Virus record (IMG/VR): IMGVR_UViG_3300045988_038540 | Origin: a virus | Length of the DNA: 39,582 nt | Direction: 5' to 3' (one strand) | Shown here: positions 398-33,315 of the stretch, one piece after another | Layout: each line of letters starts with the position of its first letter | Numbering within the stretch: position 1 is the stretch's first letter | Translations under genes and position numbers: made by a program | Notes under the pieces: generated by a model | The model's database searches: none | The model's input: the letters and a program-made list of their open reading frames with translations, nothing else | Told to the model about the DNA's origin: nothing

Positions 398-646
398 ATG
401 AAATGCCCTAAGTGTGGAAGCGAAAACGTCAGCGTTCAAATGGTAACCGAAACGCAGTTAGTAGACAAACATCATGGAATTATATGGTGGATTTGCATTG
501 GCTGGTGGTGGATTTTTATTAAATGGCTTGTGTTTACACTTCCTGCGTTAATCGTAAAAATTTTTGCGCCCAAAAAACAAAAACTGAAACAAAAGCAAAA
601 ATCTGTGTGTGTTTGCCAAAATTGCGGGTATCATTGGGAAGCATAA
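398..646 (+). CDS. Zinc-ribbon membrane protein, 82 aa
   Basis: Internal ATG at 398 follows GAGAGAGGG; CPKCG...CQNCG pairs flank a Trp-rich transmembrane segment (IIWWICIGWWWIFIKWLVF). Confidence 0.6.
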   Translation: MKCPKCGSENVSVQMVTETQLVDKHHGIIWWICIGWWWIFIKWLVFTLPALIVKIFAPKKQKLKQKQKSVCVCQNCGYHWEA

Positions 647-698
647 AAAATCGCCGTCAGGTCTCCCCTGGCGGCGTACTTCTAAGGAGGTGATCCTC

Positions 699-1715
699 TT
701 GAAGCTCCCAACAGCCAAAAAGATTCCATCCGGTAACTGGAATGTTAGCGTTATGATAGCTGGGGAGAGAATATCCATTACCGCCCCAACAAAAAAAGAG
801 GCAGAAAATCAGGCGGCAGCGATAAAGTCCGGAGCCAAAGCGGCCAGGAAAAAGACTGGGCTGACTGTTGGCGAGGCCATAGACCAATATGTAGAAAGTA
901 AGGACGCCGTTTTGTCCCCAGCCACGATTGCCGGATATAAGAGGATACGTACGAATGCCTTGCAAGACATCATGGATATTGATTTGGACCGTCTCACGCC
1001 GCAAATCGTCCAGCGGTCTATCAATATGATGGCTCGGAATAAATCTCCTAAAACTGTCCGAAACGCTCATGGGCTATTAAGTGCCACATTAGCAGTTTAC
1101 AGGCCAGACATGGCCCTTAGAACCACTCTCCCGCAAAAGGTACGCTATGAAATTTCTATCCCGTCAGACGATGATATAGGCACCATCATGAATGCGTGTA
1201 GGGGCACCGAAAACGAGCTGCCGATCATGCTTGCTCTCTGGCTTGGTTTGCGTATGTCCGAAATCTTAGGACTACGGTGGGAAGATGTTGACGGTGATGT
1301 CCTCCACATCCGGCGGGCAAAAGTGGACGAGGGCGTCAAGACGACCAAAACATATATCTCCAAACGGGACCTTGATCTCCCAGAGTATCTTCAAAATTTG
1401 ATTGCAGTAGCACCGCATAATGGGGAGTATATTGTAAATCTTTCACGCCGCGCCCTGTATTGTCGATTCCAAACCATCTGCAAAAAGGCTGGCATCCAGC
1501 ACTACCGCTTCCACGATCTGCGCCATATTAATGCCTCCGTCATGCTGGCCCTTGGAATACCAAACAAGTACGCGGAGGAGCGCATGGGACACGCCACCGA
1601 CAATATGCTAAAAACCGTCTACCAGCATACAATCAGTTCCGAACAAAGGGCAACGGCGCGCAAAGTAAATGGCTATTTCGAATCCAAATTGCAGATAAAT
1701 TTACAGACAGATTAG
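699..1715 (+). CDS. int: Tyrosine site-specific integrase
   Basis: TTG at 699 lies 8 nt after GGAGGTG; LRMSEILGLRWEDV, HDLRH, MGH and VYQH give the R-H-R-Y recombinase pattern; followed by a tRNA-like attP. Confidence 0.9.
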   Translation: MKLPTAKKIPSGNWNVSVMIAGERISITAPTKKEAENQAAAIKSGAKAARKKTGLTVGEAIDQYVESKDAVLSPATIAGYKRIRTNALQDIMDIDLDRLTPQIVQRSINMMARNKSPKTVRNAHGLLSATLAVYRPDMALRTTLPQKVRYEISIPSDDDIGTIMNACRGTENELPIMLALWLGLRMSEILGLRWEDVDGDVLHIRRAKVDEGVKTTKTYISKRDLDLPEYLQNLIAVAPHNGEYIVNLSRRALYCRFQTICKKAGIQHYRFHDLRHINASVMLALGIPNKYAEERMGHATDNMLKTVYQHTISSEQRATARKVNGYFESKLQINLQTD

Positions 1716-1975: not shown

Positions 1976-2317
1976 TTATAGAGCTCTGATTTTCCGCATT
2001 ACCCCATTATATACTCTCGGGTTAGCAACTTGTAGCGTGTCCATCAAGTCATCCATAATGCCCCATACCTGCTCCTCGTTTCTCCCTTCAATCTCGCGGA
2101 GAAATTCGCTGTCTCCGTATCTCCCGACCTCTACAGGTATTTCAGCCGGAGCCGCAGAATAGGCTTGCTCATAGGTACGACTTTGCATTTCCGGTTCTTG
2201 CTTCTTCATCTGGTTCTTGATGGTGTACAAGGTTGCTAATTTAGCGTATGCGGGATAGCTGCTCTCTCCGTACTCCAGACGAGCAATCTCAATGTCGATC
2301 TCTTTGGGGTCTAGCAT
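1976..2317 (-). CDS. Hypothetical protein, 113 aa (cargo gene h)
   Basis: ATG at 2317 is 6 nt after GGGGGTG; the track start at 2326 is a GTG overlapping that SD. Confidence 0.6.
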   Translation of the reverse strand: MLDPKEIDIEIARLEYGESSYPAYAKLATLYTIKNQMKKQEPEMQSRTYEQAYSAAPAEIPVEVGRYGDSEFLREIEGRNEEQVWGIMDDLMDTLQVANPRVYNGVMRKIRAL

Positions 2318-2332
2318 AGGGGGCACCCCCTA

Positions 2333-2752
2333 TCAATCCCGACCCAGTTCGGACATAAAGCGGCGAATGGCGTCGCGCTCCCTCTCAGTAGTAGCGTTAT
2401 CCATCATCTCCTGAGCCTGCTCCATCATAGCCTCTTTGGAGTCGTGGCGGCTGTATCCACCCATGCGCCCATCCCGGCTATAGCCACCACGCCCGTCCCT
2501 GGAGTAGTGCCCCCGGACATAGTGTTTTCCACGATTTGCATAGCTAGAGCCGCGTCCATAAGACGCACCTTCATAGTCGCCAGCTTCGGAGTATCCCCCA
2601 TCCTCCTCCAGTGCGCAGATCTTGTCAATGTTCTTGATGGTATCAGTCAGCTTGTGGACCAGCTCCAGGTCACCGGCCCCCATCTCGGGCTTGCGGGCAA
2701 TCTCGTCCAGTTCGTCCTGGAGTTTGTCTTTCAGTTCATAGAGTGCTTTCAT
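2333..2752 (-). CDS. Hypothetical protein with a coiled-coil N-terminus and a Gly/Arg/Tyr/Ser-rich low-complexity centre (cargo gene g)
   Basis: AAAGGAGAG RBS; repeats of the type GGYSRDGR, GHYSRDGRGGYSRDGRMGGYSRHD. Confidence 0.65.
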   Translation of the reverse strand: MKALYELKDKLQDELDEIARKPEMGAGDLELVHKLTDTIKNIDKICALEEDGGYSEAGDYEGASYGRGSSYANRGKHYVRGHYSRDGRGGYSRDGRMGGYSRHDSKEAMMEQAQEMMDNATTERERDAIRRFMSELGRD

Positions 2753-2766
2753 GTTGTTCTCTCCTT

Positions 2767-3189
2767 TCAGGCCACACGCTCAACAATAAAATTACTGTTG
2801 GCTACCAGAATAGGCTGTGTGCTGGTGTTCTTTGCGGCGACAGTGACGCAGCAGCCGCGAGGGACATCTACCACAGCGGCAACATAGATATTGAAGAAAT
2901 CCTCTGCGGCAGCCGGGGTGATGGTAGCGGTGGAAGCATTCAGCGCCTCACCATTGATAGAGATCGCTGCCGTGATGGCCTCCACGGTCCCGCCAGTAGG
3001 GACAGCAATATTTGCTCCAAAGGAGACTTTGAATTTTGCCCGGCACTGGTTCGTGAGCCCGCGAAGAGTCACCAGCCCAGCGCCTTCTCGATGCACAATG
3101 CAGGGCTTGCCTGTGTTGGCCTCCTCAGTAAAAGGCACGTTCTGACCAGCGGCAACGGTTACGATTGCGCTGTTGCTGTATTCAGCCAT
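2767..3189 (-). CDS. Beta-rich protein resembling the BclA C-terminal/TNF-C1q-like jelly-roll domain, 140 aa (cargo gene f)
   Basis: Start MAEYSNS at 3189 after GAAAGGAA; alternating beta pattern (VTVAAGQNVPF...GLVTL...FKVSFGANIAV...ISINGEAL...NIYVAAVVDV...VTVAAKN); fold call is by resemblance only. Confidence 0.4.
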   Translation of the reverse strand: MAEYSNSAIVTVAAGQNVPFTEEANTGKPCIVHREGAGLVTLRGLTNQCRAKFKVSFGANIAVPTGGTVEAITAAISINGEALNASTATITPAAAEDFFNIYVAAVVDVPRGCCVTVAAKNTSTQPILVANSNFIVERVA

Positions 3190-3301
3190 AAACTTCATTC
3201 CTTTCAAAAAGATAGCGGCGAGGCTGTTGCCCCGCCGCATGGTTCAAAATCGGCACGGGGCCGAACATTCCGGTCATGCCGGAAAGTTGATGTATTGGGT
3301 T

Positions 3302-4006
3302 TTAGCAGCCGCAGCCGCAGGGGTTGCAGCCACATCCGGCATAAGGATTGGGCACCTGATAGGCCGGGACAGGCATGGGATTGATTCGGCGGATCAGCTC
3401 GGCAGTCTGCGCTTCCTGGTTGGCGGTGAAGAAAGCGTTCTGAGCCGCCTGAGAAGCCTGGAACTTCAGGCTCTGGTTTTCAGCCGTCAGAGTAGCGATC
3501 TTGTCCTGGGTCAGGAAGTCCAGGATCGCTCTGCTGTTGGCGTTGGCGTTGTCGATGATGTCCCGCGTGCTGGACTGGATGGTGTTGCGGGTATCGCAAG
3601 CCTGAGTAGCCATGTTGTAATTCACGCCATCAACTGCCCGCTGGGTCTGGCAGCAGCAATCCTGCAGCTGATACCCCAGATTACAGATGGAATTATCAAC
3701 ACTGTGGAAACCGTTGCTCACGGCATCCCGGATGGAGGTCTGGCCGTTCTGGAGACCGTTCAGGGCGAAGCCCTCGTTGATGTCGGCCCTGGTGGCCCAA
3801 CCCTGACCAGAGGGAGAACCCAGGCCATTGCCGGAGTTACCACCCCAGCCGCCGCTATAGCCGCCCCAGCCGAACATGCCGAAGATCAGGAACAGGATGA
3901 TCCAGGAGGCCCAATCGCCGCCCCAGCCGCCGAAACCGCCGTTTCCGCCCTGATAGGCAGGAGTCACGGGCATGGTCATCACAGCGCCGTCAGAAGAAAG
4001 ACTCAT
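3302..4006 (-). CDS. Gly/Trp-rich single-pass membrane protein with an Asn/Gln-rich helical region and a C-terminal GCGCNPCGCGC tail (cargo gene e)
   Basis: AAAGGAGA RBS; GGNGGFGGWGG-TM(WASWIILFLIFGMFGW)-GGYSGGWGG; CCC motif; Cys-rich C-terminus. Confidence 0.7.
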   Translation of the reverse strand: MSLSSDGAVMTMPVTPAYQGGNGGFGGWGGDWASWIILFLIFGMFGWGGYSGGWGGNSGNGLGSPSGQGWATRADINEGFALNGLQNGQTSIRDAVSNGFHSVDNSICNLGYQLQDCCCQTQRAVDGVNYNMATQACDTRNTIQSSTRDIIDNANANSRAILDFLTQDKIATLTAENQSLKFQASQAAQNAFFTANQEAQTAELIRRINPMPVPAYQVPNPYAGCGCNPCGCGC

Positions 4007-4058
4007 TGTGTTATCTCCTTTGTAGATTTATTTTCAAAACCCGGCCGGGATTTTGATT

Positions 4059-4098
4059 AAATGGTTTGAAATGGTTTAATAAATGGTTTGGAAATGGT
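4059..4098. repeat. Four phased AAATGGT(TT) direct repeats (starts 4059, 4069, 4081, 4092)
   Basis: Read directly; about one helical turn apart, in the 145-bp gap between cargo genes d and e. Confidence 0.8.
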
Positions 4099-4114
4099 AA
4101 GTACACTTTGCAAA

Positions 4115-4158
4115 TTCACTTCACATTCTGCGGAAAGTGAAGTTCACTTCTTCACTTC
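4115..4158. repeat. TTCACTTC x3 with an ACTTCAC/GTGAAGT inverted repeat
   Basis: TTCACTTC at 4115, 4143 and 4151; 7-bp stem 4118..4124 / 4137..4143 just downstream of the stop of gene d. Confidence 0.7.
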
Positions 4159-4373
4159 CCAAACATTCCCCGCATCCCTTCAAACACACCTGACATCTGC
4201 TGGGCCTGCTTTTGGACCTGGTTGAGCTGGTCCTGAGTAATGCGGCCAGAGGATACCATCTCTTGTATCATGGCGTTGGGGTCTTTGCCCCGCATCTGCT
4301 GCATGAAGGATTGAAACTGCTGCATCATGTTGGGCTGTCTGTTGCCGCCCATTGCCTGGAAAAAGGGGTTCAT
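4152..4373 (-). CDS. Small Gln/Met-rich hypothetical protein, 73 aa (cargo gene d)
   Basis: AAAGGAGGA RBS; ATGA overlap with the upstream gene. Confidence 0.65.
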   Translation of the reverse strand: MNPFFQAMGGNRQPNMMQQFQSFMQQMRGKDPNAMIQEMVSSGRITQDQLNQVQKQAQQMSGVFEGMRGMFGK

Positions 4374-4840
4374 TCCGCATCCTCCTTTGTGGTTGTTTTC
4401 TTTGTGGTTCTGACAGGCATCTCCTTTACCACTGTTAGCTCATTCAGACGAGCCTCCAGAGCTTCCACGCGGGATAGTGGTGCATACTCTACTACAGGAG
4501 GCTGTGAAGCCTGCACAGGCTTTTGAGTGCGCTCCACAAGATCATAGACTTTGATGGACGGCTTGCCAGAAGCGTCTGCTTGCTTGAGATAGATGGTGGG
4601 AGCGTTGCTGTCCCAAAGCGCCACAGCACTGTTGGGGGCCACCAGATAGGCCATTGCCTCCGCTTCCCCGCTCACCCATACCATGCTTTGCCCACCAGTC
4701 TGCGCCTGCTGGGGCTGTACCTGCGGAATCTGCTGGGGAATGGGCTGATACTGTGCCCCACGAAGCTGTGCAAGCTGATCCGCCATAGGCGGCTGATAAT
4801 ACGGCTGATAGCCGGGCATATATTGATATGGCACTAACAT
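4370..4840 (-). CDS. Hypothetical protein with a Pro/Gln/Tyr-rich N-terminus, 156 aa (cargo gene c)
   Basis: ATG at 4840 forms an ATGA overlap with the stop of the upstream gene; MLVPYQYMPGYQPYYQPP... Confidence 0.6.
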   Translation of the reverse strand: MLVPYQYMPGYQPYYQPPMADQLAQLRGAQYQPIPQQIPQVQPQQAQTGGQSMVWVSGEAEAMAYLVAPNSAVALWDSNAPTIYLKQADASGKPSIKVYDLVERTQKPVQASQPPVVEYAPLSRVEALEARLNELTVVKEMPVRTTKKTTTKEDAE

Positions 4841-5220
4841 CAATCCTCCATCCAGTAATACAACACGGTCTTTCCGCCGCTGTTCCAAGTATCTACGATG
4901 CGCCCGTCAAAGACGCAGACAATATGAGTGTCCAATGCTAGCAGATAGACGCCATAGGGATGCTGATGAGCGAACTCCTGCACAGTTATATCCTCGTACT
5001 CTGGTAGATAGCGCCGCCAGCCTTTACGACGGAGATATTTGCCCCAAACAGGATTTCCTGACGGCATATCTGCGGCAAGGTAGCCCTCCCAGCATAGTCC
5101 CCAATAGGTGGTGTCCCAATCCTGATCTAGGGCAACGGAAATTGCCCTGACGGTGCAATCGCCTACGTTCTTTCCGTCTCTATTGGCGTTGTAATATTCA
5201 AACGTACTGTTTCCTGTCAT
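4840..5220 (-). CDS. Hypothetical protein, possible papain-like Cys/His fold (cargo gene b); start uncertain (5220 or 5235)
   Basis: GDCTVRAISVAL (candidate nucleophile Cys) and later LDTHIVCVFDGRIVDTWNSG (His/Asp); no clear SD. Confidence 0.4.
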   Translation of the reverse strand: MTGNSTFEYYNANRDGKNVGDCTVRAISVALDQDWDTTYWGLCWEGYLAADMPSGNPVWGKYLRRKGWRRYLPEYEDITVQEFAHQHPYGVYLLALDTHIVCVFDGRIVDTWNSGGKTVLYYWMED

Positions 5221-5443
5221 CGTACAAAAGCTCATTCTGTCGGATAAACCGTTCCAATCCGGAGAAGTCTCCCTCCGCCGCATACTTCTCGCAGGTGTCT
5301 CTTGCTGTGGACTCCGTGAAGCCGCAGGCCACCAGCCGGGCCACCAATTCAGCACCATTCAAAATCAAATCAAACACGTCCTTATCAGTGAAATCAGGAG
5401 GCCGCAAGGAGGGTGGCGACGTGTACCAGCCCTTGATCCTCAC
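5198..5443 (-). CDS. Hypothetical protein, 81 aa (cargo gene a); start uncertain
   Basis: GTG at 5443 is only 2 nt after AGGAGG, so spacing is poor; first gene after the divergent intergenic region. Confidence 0.4.
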   Translation of the reverse strand: MRIKGWYTSPPSLRPPDFTDKDVFDLILNGAELVARLVACGFTESTARDTCEKYAAEGDFSGLERFIRQNELLYDDRKQYV

Positions 5444-5559
5444 GTCCTCCTATTGATATTGTCGCATAAAAAAACTTCCGCTGGGTGGCATCTATGTGGG
5501 AGATATGAGGGGAGTGTGTATTATGTATGCTGGTATCTGAAGAATTTTGCAAAAATGTG

Positions 5560-5588
5560 TTTACAAATCCCTTTCTAAATCATATAAT
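5560..5588 (+). promoter_or_regulatory. Sigma-A/sigma-70-type promoter TTTACA-N17-TATAAT
   Basis: TTTACA 5560..5565, 17-nt spacer, TATAAT 5583..5588, about 100 nt upstream of the NYN gene. Confidence 0.65.
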
Positions 5589-5594
5589 AAGGGA

Positions 5595-5663
5595 GCAGAA
5601 AGTATCATGTCTTTCTGCTTAGACTAAGACGGGGCCCGTATGGCTTTCGAGCCAGCGGGCCCC
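5595..5663 (+). promoter_or_regulatory. Structured 5' leader with two stem-loops
   Basis: GCAGAAAG/CTTTCTGC (5595..5618); GGGGCCCG-TGGCT-ttcg-AGCCA-CGGGCCCC (5631..5663); each followed by TTAGAC. Confidence 0.6.
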
Positions 5664-5689
5664 TTAGACATTTACTGGAGGGATAAAAT

Positions 5690-6277
5690 ATGGGAAGGGC
5701 AATGGTCTTTATTGATTTTGAAAACTTCAATATCGCTATGATGAATTATTATCGCAAAATCGAGGAACCTACTGCCAGATTAGATTATAATAAGTTCCCA
5801 CAGAAAATTGTCAGCCTTCTTCCAGGGAACCATACCCTTGAAAAAACTTTCTTGTGTGCCCCAAAGCCAGATGAATTTCTTATGCAGGATGAGCGCAGGA
5901 AAAATACATATAACTGGATAAATGGGTTGAAAAATCAAAAATATTTTACCGTAATCGAAGGGCAGCATATCGCTCGGAAGGTTTATGGGAAGGAAATGGA
6001 TATTCATGACAAGTCAACTTATTATGTAGAGGAAAAAGGAACCGACACCAACATGGGGGTTCATTTAATAGCAAAAGGCTTTTTAAATGCGTATGATGTT
6101 GCTGTTATTGTGAGCGGAGATAGCGATTATATTCCGGCGCTTGAAATTCTGAATACTATCGGGAAAATAACTGTTGTTGTGGGTGTAAATGGGCAAAATA
6201 TGACTAAACTTAAAAATTGTTCTGATGATGTGCTTATCTTAGATAAAGCCTTTTTCGACGAATGCCTACGAGTATAA
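5690..6277 (+). CDS. NYN/LabA-like (PIN-fold) nuclease domain protein, 195 aa
   Basis: GGAGGG RBS; VFIDFENF, EEKGTDTNMGVHLI and VIVSGDSDYIPAL match the Asp-containing NYN (PF01936-type) motifs; visibly AT-richer than its flanks. Confidence 0.8.
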   Translation: MGRAMVFIDFENFNIAMMNYYRKIEEPTARLDYNKFPQKIVSLLPGNHTLEKTFLCAPKPDEFLMQDERRKNTYNWINGLKNQKYFTVIEGQHIARKVYGKEMDIHDKSTYYVEEKGTDTNMGVHLIAKGFLNAYDVAVIVSGDSDYIPALEILNTIGKITVVVGVNGQNMTKLKNCSDDVLILDKAFFDECLRV

Positions 6278-6283
6278 AAGATA

Positions 6284-6317
6284 GGAGCCGGGTCAATCCC
6301 CGGCTCCCTTATTTTTG
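6284..6317. terminator. Bidirectional rho-independent terminator
   Basis: GGAGCCGGG/CCCGGCTCC stem; T run on the plus side, A run upstream gives a U run on the minus side; shared by convergent genes. Confidence 0.7.
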
Positions 6318-6553
6318 TAAAGCTGTTTTGCTACATCCTTAACCCTCTGGAATATATACTTTTCGTGATCGCTAACTGTGCTACGATACCAGCCCAATTC
6401 TGCCGCTACATCAATTTGATTCCACTTATCGATGATACGCCGCCTTGCGATCAGTTCATCGTCTGTATAGAGTGCTGCCTCTTCAATAGCTCTTTCCAGC
6501 TGAGAGCGCAAGAGTTTATCCGGCGGATCAGGCAGTTTCACTCTTGCGCTCAC
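6293..6553 (-). CDS. Small HTH protein resembling sigma-70 region 4
   Basis: GTG start after GGAAGGA; IARRRIIDKWNQIDVAAELGWYRSTVSDHEKYIFQRV. Confidence 0.5.
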   Translation of the reverse strand: MSARVKLPDPPDKLLRSQLERAIEEAALYTDDELIARRRIIDKWNQIDVAAELGWYRSTVSDHEKYIFQRVKDVAKQLYKNKGAGD

Positions 6554-6571
6554 AGTCTCACGTCCTTCCTC

Positions 6572-7261
6572 TTATTTCATCAGCTCCCAAAGCCGATGCA
6601 ACATAGTGCACATCTGCTGCCGGATAACGGGCTGGGAGAGCATCAGGTCCCCCTCGCTGTTGCCCGTCAGGATGCCGTTTGCAATGGCCCATTCCACGCC
6701 CTCCTTGTGGGCGGGAGACGGTGTATTGTCCATGATCTTGACCTCCAGTCTCTTCTTGAACTCTGCCCACTTCTGGGCGCTCACCAAGTACGACGGGCAG
6801 TGCTTCCCTGTCACATCAAAGTGACGGTACACGTTCTCAATGGGGATGCCGTACTTTTCCATCAGAGCCCGGCCCAGGGCGGCAGCGTTGGCAAGAGTTG
6901 CTTCGCTGGCCTGATAGACACCGTTCCGGATGGTGTCACACATCTCAATGCTGATAGAGTTGGTATTGGTGATGACGCCGTACATGGTGCCGCCGCCAGT
7001 CTTGTCGGCGTTGGCGTACTTGCTGCCGCCGACGGACCACGCAATCTTCAGATCGGGGACGGACAGATATACGGTGGTATCGTCCACAAAGTAATGGGCA
7101 CTGGCCTTGACGATGTTCCGCTGGAAGTACGCGGCGTTGTTTGCCGCCTTGTCCCCGTCATTCCCGGTGTAGTGGTACACCAGATATCGGATTTGGCTGG
7201 CGTTCCGGGAACCGCCATAGTTCCCGGGGTTCGCCAGCTGCTCCTTTCGCGTGTAACTCAC
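6572..7261 (-). CDS. Endolysin: N-acetylmuramoyl-L-alanine amidase (Amidase_2/PGRP type) with a C-terminal SLH-like repeat
   Basis: YLVYHYTGN, AHYFVDD, ISIEMCD and RHFDVTGKHCP motifs; C-terminal AHKEGVEWAIANGILTG...; GTGA overlap with the holin. Confidence 0.85.
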   Translation of the reverse strand: MSYTRKEQLANPGNYGGSRNASQIRYLVYHYTGNDGDKAANNAAYFQRNIVKASAHYFVDDTTVYLSVPDLKIAWSVGGSKYANADKTGGGTMYGVITNTNSISIEMCDTIRNGVYQASEATLANAAALGRALMEKYGIPIENVYRHFDVTGKHCPSYLVSAQKWAEFKKRLEVKIMDNTPSPAHKEGVEWAIANGILTGNSEGDLMLSQPVIRQQMCTMLHRLWELMK

Positions 7262-19700: not shown

Positions 19701-19744
19701 CCAAATAAAAAAGGAGCCAACCTGCAAGAAACCCTTACAAGTTG
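19701..19744 (-). terminator. Possible minus-strand-specific hairpin plus U run after the RHH gene
   Basis: CAACUUGUAAG/CUUGCAGGUUG: 11 bp with two G-U pairs on the minus RNA only (C-A mismatches on plus); U6 starts 5 nt after the stem. Confidence 0.35.
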
Positions 19745-19790
19745 ACCCCAACGGTCCTTCCCGCTCACCAATTAGAGCAGGGTTCAGTGT

Positions 19791-32075: not shown

Positions 32076-33315
32076 CGCTTTCTCCCTTCTTTGTGTACCG
32101 GCGGCACCGGGCATCATAGACCAGCTGTATGTTGGCTGTGGAGCCGTAGGACCGGTTCTTCAGGATGCTCAGCCCGGCGTCATACCCATAGGCCGCGATA
32201 TCCTTTTCTTCCATCCGTTCCAGAGAAAAGGCGTTGTCCGCCCGGTTTGTGATGTCCGCCGACCCGCCGATGTCGTCCGCGGTCAGCAGCTTCTTTTTGT
32301 CGCTGTCGCCCTTCCGGGGGTGTGCCACAAGATGCACGTGCACCTCGTTTTTTTTGGCGAACTCCACCAACCGCCCCGTAAACCGGCTCTGCGCCCGGTA
32401 GAAGTCCTTATCGCTCTGGTCGCTGAATCGGGCGGTCATCAGGTTGTCCACAAGAAATACACAGCAGCCGAACCGGCGAACGGCATACTCGAACACGGAA
32501 ATGATGCTGTCCTCGTCCCCAGCACCGGCCACCCGGTTGTCGTACAGGAAAAACTTCCCCTTCCACCAACCGTCGATCCGGTCCGCGATCTCCTTCGGCG
32601 TGTAGTAATACAGCTTCCCGGACACCGGGTCCCGCTTCGGCTCGATATGCCCGGCCCCGGCGGCCTGTAGCATGGCCCACTGCTTGAAGCGCCAGGCCGA
32701 CAGCTCCCCGGAGTAGGCGCAGACCGGGAAGCCCTGGTCGATGGCGTTTAGAAGCAGCTGGGACAGCAGCGTGGACTTGCCGCTGCCGCGCTTTCCAGTC
32801 CACACAGACAGCTCCGATGGGGCAAAGCCTCCGATGGACTGGTCCAGTGCTTTTAGACCGGACATGACGGCGACGGATGCGCCGGGGTCCCTCCGCTCCA
32901 CGTCCGCCAGGTCCAGCAGTCCGTCCATGGGCTGTTCCACGGCCCCCAGCAACAGATGATCCACGGCCTTTCTCCCGCCGGAAGCCAGCACCTCCCGGAT
33001 ACGGGAACATTTCCCGAAGGCCCCTTCCTTTGGCAGCAGCACGGCCACAGATGGCGCGTATTCTTTGAGTGCGTCCGCCACGGCTTCCGCCGTATCACGG
33101 TCGGACAGAGCCAGGAACACAGATGGGAAGGCACTCAGAAACGGCTCCGCATCCCGGAAGTTCTCAAAGCCCGCTCCGTAGGCAAGGCAAACGGCGTTCT
33201 GGTTGTCCAGGGCTGTCACATCCTGGGCGTCCGCCACAAACCACAGCGTTTTCCGGGTGTCCAGGGCGGTCTCGTCGTAGAGCAGCCAACGGGAGGCATC
33301 AGGTAAACTTGGCAT
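32050..33315 (-). CDS. DnaB-like replicative helicase (RecA-type C-terminal domain; Toprim-like N-terminal region)
   Basis: Walker A GKRGSGKSTLL; FLVDNL Walker B-like; start MPSLPD at 33315 after GAGGA. Confidence 0.75.
   Translation of the reverse strand: MPSLPDASRWLLYDETALDTRKTLWFVADAQDVTALDNQNAVCLAYGAGFENFRDAEPFLSAFPSVFLALSDRDTAEAVADALKEYAPSVAVLLPKEGAFGKCSRIREVLASGGRKAVDHLLLGAVEQPMDGLLDLADVERRDPGASVAVMSGLKALDQSIGGFAPSELSVWTGKRGSGKSTLLSQLLLNAIDQGFPVCAYSGELSAWRFKQWAMLQAAGAGHIEPKRDPVSGKLYYYTPKEIADRIDGWWKGKFFLYDNRVAGAGDEDSIISVFEYAVRRFGCCVFLVDNLMTARFSDQSDKDFYRAQSRFTGRLVEFAKKNEVHVHLVAHPRKGDSDKKKLLTADDIGGSADITNRADNAFSLERMEEKDIAAYGYDAGLSILKNRSYGSTANIQLVYDARCRRYTKKGESDGVYGWER

Follow-up and report, generated by a model that had tools for sequence, protein, structure and literature searches.

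The Pfam family PF01936 includes regulators such as LabA in addition to nucleases of the NYN type, and in toxin-antitoxin systems of the ToxIN kind the gene of an endoribonuclease is preceded by a promoter and a structured RNA. A CRISPR-associated NYN protein of Bacteroides fragilis is a Mn-dependent, sequence-nonspecific endonuclease of single-stranded RNA that is inactivated by the exchange D13A (Chi & White 2024, PMC11346440). It was expressed and purified as a recombinant protein and trims CRISPR RNA (crRNA) intermediates in vitro, and a role in crRNA trimming was proposed for it (PMC11346440). A single-gene NYN defence candidate is listed in PADLOC as HEC-09 (Hma-embedded candidate 09); it has three conserved Asp residues, is described with an N-terminal IF2B/5-like region and occurs within Hma systems, and in E. 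coli it did not protect against the phages tested (bioRxiv 10.1101/2024.01.29.577857). Here we describe an NYN gene with its own promoter and a two-hairpin leader RNA in the virus record IMGVR_UViG_3300045988_038540. The whole stretch of 39,582 nt that was analysed is called the window; coordinates are window positions and “+” is the strand shown. Enzymes of the NYN class are already known, and a single NYN gene has been put forward as a defence candidate before. What Rfam and the papers found do not describe is an NYN subfamily that has a dedicated structured leader and takes turns with Panacea modules in a defined slot of a prophage.

We propose, with a probability of roughly 0.55, that the locus is a horizontally mobile cassette of promoter, two-hairpin leader and NYN gene that a temperate phage carries in a dedicated cargo slot and that has a conflict-type role. 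The cassette consists of the following features:

5511..6282 (boundaries within ~10 nt), +: swappable cassette of ~770 bp with promoter, structured leader and NYN open reading frame (ORF), delimited by similarity breaks
5560..5588, +: predicted promoter of the sigma-70/sigma-A type, TTTACA-N17-TATAAT, with 11/12 consensus matches
5593..5620, +: leader hairpin 1 of 10 bp, located where the transcript is predicted to start, from folding
5619..5624, +: upstream UUAGAC box; a TAGAC/TAGAT/TAGT box is kept before hairpin 2 (alignment A2)
5631..5663, +: leader hairpin 2, −27 kcal/mol, from folding and covariation
5664..5669, +: downstream UUAGAC box, 3′ of hairpin 2 and 5′ of the ribosome-binding site, with a UUAGAC/UUUAGAU consensus in most leaders
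5677..5682, +: ribosome-binding site GGAGGG, 7 nt 5′ of the ATG and unpaired in the predicted fold
5690..6277, +: gene of an NYN/LabA-type nuclease of 195 amino acids (aa) with ATG start, assigned by PF01936, a structure model and invariant acidic residues
5714-5716 (D9), 6044-6046 (D119), 6119-6121 (D144) and 6125-6127 (D146), +: codons of the predicted catalytic Asp residues

As judged from its sequence and a structure model, the protein belongs securely to PF01936 and folds as a single NYN (PIN-like) nuclease domain in which the acidic site is intact. The hidden Markov model of Pfam NYN matches with 50.6 bits against a cut-off of 24.2, with residues 3-183 covering positions 1-143 of the 145 profile positions. 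The motifs VFIDFENF, EKGTD and SGDSDY, from which a preliminary description of the locus, made from the sequence alone, had recognized the NYN fold, are all present in the 195-aa product. Across 30 homologues with 56-82% identity the residues D9, N12, E115-K-G-T-D119, D144 and D146 are invariant. D9, D119, D144 and D146 align with the motif of VPA0982 in a phmmer alignment and correspond to the Asp triad given for VPA0982, MARF1 and the B. fragilis NYN. The AlphaFold model has a predicted local distance difference test score (pLDDT) of 95.3 and shows a single domain with a long β-hairpin insert at residues 86-116. The best structures found by Foldseek were VPA0982 (2QIP, E = 7.5e-9) and the NYN domain of MARF1 (5YAA, E = 2.7e-5), and of the top three matches among predicted viral structures, two carry an NYN or LabA-like annotation. 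A sequence search of the PDB with the NYN protein gave no significant match (2QIP with E = 0.46), and the fold search alone was informative. Compared with a homologue of 93% identity, the rate of nonsynonymous changes (dN) is 0.035 and that of synonymous changes (dS) 1.67 (dN/dS ~0.02), which points to strong purifying selection on the protein. From the analogy with the B. fragilis NYN and MARF1 we infer a metal-dependent ribonuclease activity.

The structural match closest to the window protein, the LabA-like DUF88 protein VPA0982, has an SGDxDF motif that aligns with the window NYN, but the identity is 19%, the β-hairpin insert is an extra of the window family and the function of VPA0982 is unknown. 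The NYN domain of MARF1 (5YAA, 6FDL) has the same fold and acidic pocket, whereas MARF1 itself is a eukaryotic multidomain protein with 13% identity to the window NYN. The B. fragilis protein is likewise a stand-alone NYN of the PF01936 type, with VPA0982 and MARF1 as closest structures and the same Asp triad. Its gene lies within a type III CRISPR locus, whereas the window NYN family is found in other contexts, and no CRISPR genes were seen near family copies in the contexts read.

The preliminary description knew of no single-gene NYN unit among the named anti-phage systems. This has to be revised in view of HEC-09, the model of which matches the window protein with E = 1.2e-14 and 52.4 bits, profile positions 36-176 (141/203) corresponding to residues 42-186. 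The two share the character of a single-gene NYN candidate with three conserved Asp residues. The alignment leaves out the N-terminal strand that carries D9, and the score is no better than that of the generic Pfam NYN model. Where HEC-09 has its IF2B/5-like region, the window NYN domain begins already at residue 3 of a single-domain model. Furthermore, HEC-09 sits in Hma systems, in contrast to the window NYN, which lies in a prophage cargo slot together with a conserved RNA leader; no Hma or other multi-gene defence neighbours occur in any NYN context read. By profile comparison the window NYN is a distant relative of HEC-09 and not a demonstrated member.

The second component of the cassette is the leader RNA. 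Two strong stem-loops near the 5′ end of the transcript had been noticed in the preliminary description, and the fold supports them: the leader 5594..5700 forms two hairpins with −40.5 kcal/mol (z = −3.7), and 0/200 shuffles fold as well. The hairpins had been taken for a local feature, whereas they actually belong to a leader that is conserved and moves together with the gene family. The order of consensus promoter, hairpin 1, UAGAC-type box, the long and GC-rich hairpin 2, UUAGAC/UUUAGAU box and ribosome-binding site recurs 5′ of nearly every homologue with at least 40% protein identity, and 23 of 28 leaders fold with z < −2. A hairpin is present at the position of hairpin 1 in most of these 28 leaders, with a sequence that is unrelated between lineages; hairpin 1 was not alignable by MAFFT, and its conservation rests on per-sequence folds and not on a covariation count. 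For hairpin 2, a 17-sequence alignment revealed compensatory changes in 10 of 12 pairs. In this alignment 89% of the cells are paired, compared with 30-60% when the partners are slid, and the observed covariation was reached by 0/500 shuffles. G-U pairs are frequent in hairpin 2, which favours the sense RNA strand as the structured one. Its lower stem covaries, while its apex GGCUUUCGAGCC carries a UUCG loop; the apical GGCUUUCGAGCC is nearly invariant within the closer clade. Between the window and locus L106 hairpin 2 is identical in 33/33 nt, and the synonymous sites of the ORF are 67% different.

A covariance model of the leader matched solely directly upstream of NYN ORFs in ~1 Mb searched and gave no match in the 43 NYN-less sister loci searched. 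It also recovered loci outside its training set, namely L131 with 46.5 bits and L132/L133 with 29.3 bits. Rfam 15 returned nothing significant at 5589-5690, even at E ≤ 5, and the leaders of 10 other loci likewise had no Rfam match. Comparison of the loci indicates that the leader structure is evolutionarily conserved and co-travels with the NYN family.

In the NYN clade of 45-48% identity (L119, L121, L124-L126, L128) a longer conserved element, GCGGnAGAUGGCUnUAnAGCCUGCCUCCGC, takes the place of hairpin 1. The GCGGnAGAUGGCUnUAnAGCCUGCCUCCGC leaders lie ~100 nt upstream of the NYN start, and the apical loop of hairpin 2 is different there and U-rich. This clade suggests that leader and NYN protein may diverge together. 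We considered hairpin 2 as a general transcription attenuator and rejected it, the tail in the window having 3 U in 8 nt and at least 5 U in 8 nt being found in just 10/30 leaders; hairpin 2 was also not called as a terminator in the window. No tandem repeats were detected at 5400-6400, where just one 6-nt UUAGAC box stands on either side of hairpin 2.

The third line of evidence concerns the place of the cassette in the phage. Its immediate surroundings are made up of three features:

5397..5450, −: RAGATH-31 RNA (RF03101), the left slot flank, 75 bits against a gathering score of 71.8
6284..6307, both strands: GC-rich bidirectional terminator hairpin with a T-run on each strand
6293..6553, −: 86-aa ORF, the last gene of the late/lysis operon after the endolysin and the right slot flank, found in 51/51 sister loci

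With the neighbouring 86-aa protein as query, 51 sister phage loci were retrieved. Similarity to sister phages with other cargo ends at 5500-5519 on the left and restarts at 6273-6283 on the right, and for this reason the cassette was delimited to about 5511..6282. Where the contents of the slot are unrelated, its flanks are 89-95% identical. We looked for inverted repeats at the edges of the cassette and dismissed them, as the arms 5533-5556 and 6311-6334 are only 71% complementary. The slot contains a SocA/Panacea antitoxin with toxin type 1 in 21/51 loci, a 95-aa ORF in 14/51, NYN in 7/51, a SocA/Panacea antitoxin with toxin type 2 in another 7/51 and a P63C-domain protein in 1/51; 1/51 loci is cut. 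The survey of the same slot in related phages that the preliminary description had suggested thus found NYN to be swapped with other cargo, and because just 7 of the 51 sister loci carry it, NYN is not a core gene of this phage group. More distant phages with NYN proteins of 82% and 47% identity also hold the gene at the position adjacent to RAGATH-31.

An own consensus promoter, TTTACx/TTGACA-N17-TATAAT, is found in each inspected cassette that is oriented like NYN (three other cargo types). The Panacea (SocA-like) modules share slot, orientation and the presence of an own consensus promoter with NYN, but they are two-protein modules and have no sequence relationship to it. Examples of alternative cargo are L034:4281-5187(−), L037:4278-5149(−), L056:4278-4559(−) and L076:4405-5292(+). 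The two SocA/Panacea antitoxins (PF13274) are distinct and each is followed by an unrelated putative toxin; in PADLOC one of these toxins weakly matches NsnC and the other has no match. The family of the 95-aa cargo ORF is unknown.

On the left side of the slot, 5356-5500 is the sole flanking sequence that is kept in the most diverged sister phages. The RAGATH-31 RNA overlaps the predicted start of an 81-aa ORF, and the divergent arrangement of RAGATH-31 and NYN recurs in L007 and L119. In L127 a twister-P5 ribozyme lies ~1 kb downstream of the NYN gene. Inspection by eye of sister phages such as L050 and L053 suggested a 9-bp hairpin with a U-run on the minus strand between cassette and RAGATH-31, which, if real, would insulate the slot on the RAGATH-31 side. 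The corresponding candidate in the window (~5470..5500) is degenerate (−4.6 kcal/mol, z = 0.24) and was discarded. On the right side, the final codons of the 86-aa ORF fall within the bidirectional terminator hairpin; this ORF has a weak match to Sigma70_r4, below threshold.

The expression signals named in the preliminary description were recovered on the side of initiation. The predicted promoter at 5560..5588 lies within the cassette and is the best site within 4800..7000, with a predicted transcript start at ~5594-5596, and a comparable consensus promoter precedes NYN homologues in other contexts. The ribosome-binding site, which had been rated as good, is likewise present. The claim of a base composition richer in AT than both flanks is supported by a GC content of 37.8% for the cassette compared with 51.8% for the window, and by a GC content at third codon positions of 0.37 for NYN against 0.45-0.78 for the neighbouring genes (endolysin 0.78). 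The bidirectional terminator exists as described, with a T-run on both strands and shared with the late operon, but it is not the cassette's own. The hairpin is kept beside Panacea cargo, and one loop base differs beside the 95-aa cargo. As this comparison indicates, the terminator 6284..6307 is part of the phage backbone outside the cassette and serves the late operon as well as whichever cargo is present. A pairing of the 5′ end with the terminator, based on an 11-nt match between 5586-5596 and 6303-6313, does not recur in L007 as judged by eye and was put down to chance.

Of the properties of a moron, the term used in the preliminary description, the locus has a consensus promoter of its own, patchy presence and foreign composition, and it has no terminator of its own, this being supplied by the phage backbone. 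On the comparison of sister loci, NYN is cargo and a non-core gene, in the form of an autonomous, compositionally foreign and swappable moron.

The NYN subfamily is small: a search of 1.84 billion representatives gave 30 clusters at E ≤ 1e-30, a number that rises to 869 at E ≤ 0.001; among the matches listed, all members are short and mostly single-domain. The subfamily occurs in 14 species representatives, all of them Clostridia. We read the surroundings of homologues with 57-70% identity. One copy lies in another prophage between integrase and repressor, one in an element of Caproicibacterium resembling an integrative and conjugative element (ICE), one beside a short integrase and an IS66 gene and one at the edge of a resolvase/integrase island, and two more are found on phage- or plasmid-like backbones. 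One copy is a lone chromosomal insertion surrounded by housekeeping genes, no gene of a mobile element being found within 7 kb, and another copy lies beside housekeeping genes at a contig end. Most copies of the subfamily are on mobile elements. The gene is monocistronic in every context and has no adjacent co-transcribed partner gene, which distinguishes it from type II toxin-antitoxin systems. Taken at the level of sequence, promoter, leader and gene are transferred as a unit among prophage slots, ICE, islands and chromosomes.

The window itself is a temperate siphovirus-like phage with integrase (609..1715, +, at the window edge), Amidase_2 endolysin, holin and tail genes. The prophage adjoins host genes on 250-kb contigs, where one flanking protein is named Dysosmobacter welbionis or Oscillibacter by the sources. 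By the match of the integration-site flank to proteins of Dysosmobacter welbionis and Oscillibacter, the carrier is a Dysosmobacter/Oscillibacter prophage. The assembly collection lists the exact NYN protein in 826 blocks, 427 contigs carry it, and the prophage with the NYN cassette is very common in the human gut. Among GenBank phages it has hardly any counterpart: tblastn of the NYN protein against 50,697 phage records gave no match, and megablast of the 10 kb around the gene against GenBank phages gave a single match of 3%.

NYN had been described as the only sizeable plus-strand gene among minus-strand operons. A gene map drawn from the longest ORFs is misleading in this respect, because antisense ORFs are long in this GC-rich phage, and a PHROG check and the gene calls of identical contigs were used instead. 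These calls place every gene across the 10 kb to the right of NYN on the minus strand, ten other long plus-strand ORFs of the window have no PHROG matches, and the GC skew within 2-38 kb is positive solely at 5.4-6.3 kb, over the NYN gene. The description is correct with the exception of the integrase, which lies on the plus strand as well. A minus-strand cluster (1976..5443) separates the cargo slot from the integrase/phage attachment site (attP) side; most of its proteins fall into PHROG families of unknown function. Its members include a DUF7841/BclA_C-like protein (2767..3240), a Gly/Cys-rich protein of 234 aa (3302..4006) with the C-terminal end GCGCNPCGCGC, and Q/P-rich proteins, a content unusual for a region after lysis genes. 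Elsewhere in the window, a gut-2 RNA (RF02990) was found at 19738..19784 (−) with 51.9 bits against a gathering score of 39.8, within an AT-rich stretch (GC ~0.43, 19.5-20.4 kb) of the minus-strand structural region, and 32100..33300 is GC-rich with 0.61-0.64 compared with the window average of 0.52.

How could such a cassette act? In the reading that we prefer, the NYN gene would be transcribed from its own promoter in the lysogen, against late transcription, and its product would cut single-stranded RNA, as the characterized stand-alone bacterial NYN does. This could benefit the element in a conflict, for example by excluding incoming phages, by aborting their infection or through addiction. 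The leader might act in cis and set the level of the RNase or feed back on it, for example as a 5′ stabilizer combined with a binding or cleavage site for the NYN enzyme. Several points weigh against a conflict-type role. HEC-09, the sole single-gene NYN candidate tested, did not defend E. coli, a sensor or partner that would restrain or trigger a nonspecific RNase is not encoded, and an argument from the slot shared with toxin-antitoxin modules would be guilt by association. The homologue that stands alone among housekeeping genes also fits a non-conflict role. The NYN protein could then be an RNA-processing or regulatory nuclease similar to LabA that alters host physiology as a lysogenic-conversion trait. 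Such a function would accord with the regulators in PF01936, with the second copy beside housekeeping genes and with the high prevalence of the cassette in gut samples. We consider it unlikely, as the subfamily is small with a patchy distribution, mobile elements carry most of its copies and addiction and defence-type cargo uses the same slot. That NYN is a decaying passenger gene devoid of function is hardly conceivable: its foreign composition would suit this explanation, but the selection data contradict it, with the low dN/dS, an active site that is invariant in 30 homologues, an exact protein that recurs on hundreds of contigs and a conserved leader.

The conserved leader invites a comparison with type III toxin-antitoxin systems, in which the NYN RNase would be a toxin neutralized by hairpin 2, perhaps after its release at the UUAGAC boxes, and would be freed by loss of the element or shut-off of transcription. 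The order of promoter, structured RNA and endoribonuclease gene parallels ToxIN, and protein pairs of an antitoxin followed by a toxin occupy the same slot in sister phages. In addition, the apex of hairpin 2 is strongly constrained and differs between protein clades, the hairpin has a UUAGAC box on both sides, and the cassette is also found alone in a chromosome. Type III systems, however, have tandem RNA repeats, which are missing at the NYN locus, and an intrinsic terminator between RNA and ORF, of which there is no clear counterpart; hairpin 2 with its tail is not a simple terminator in the window and qualifies as one in 10/30 leaders. The nuclease fold of type III systems differs from NYN, and no NYN toxin of such a type was found in the literature searched. 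Moreover, because the B. fragilis NYN could be obtained as a recombinant protein, the class is not obviously lethal when overproduced (PMC11346440). Taken together, we judge a type III-like module to be quite improbable. A looser RNA-protein module is conceivable at low odds in view of the gene order and of a constrained hairpin that has repeated boxes on both sides. In its most far-reaching form, which is speculative and in our view unlikely, leader RNA and NYN RNase would be an undescribed two-part module that passes as a whole between prophages, ICEs and chromosomes of Clostridia and serves abortive infection or addiction, with the RNA as antitoxin, decoy or self-sensing switch. Rather unlikely, finally, is a counter-defence or takeover RNase that would degrade crRNAs, defence transcripts or signalling nucleotides at entry or induction. 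The occurrence of the gene on phages, ICE and islands and the in vitro trimming of crRNA intermediates by the CRISPR-associated NYN (PMC11346440) are compatible with it. Against it, the NYN gene opposes the late operon behind the lysis genes and is not part of an early or leading-region operon, toxin-antitoxin modules and not known anti-defence genes make up the alternative cargo, and the location in an integrase-repressor module of another prophage is typical of lysogen-expressed genes.

In conclusion, the NYN cassette appears to be a good candidate for a phage-borne conflict gene, and given the prevalence of the protein, any function of NYN operates in many human guts. The bounded slot between terminator and RAGATH-31, through which NYN, two Panacea pairs and two unknown cargo types cycle, represents a natural experiment on slot selection. 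The leader, a structured RNA that is conserved and has no Rfam family, goes with one small nuclease subfamily, and both together form a defined gene-RNA pair. If NYN proves to be an exclusion or addiction nuclease, this would provide the first mechanism for the class of single-gene NYN candidates.

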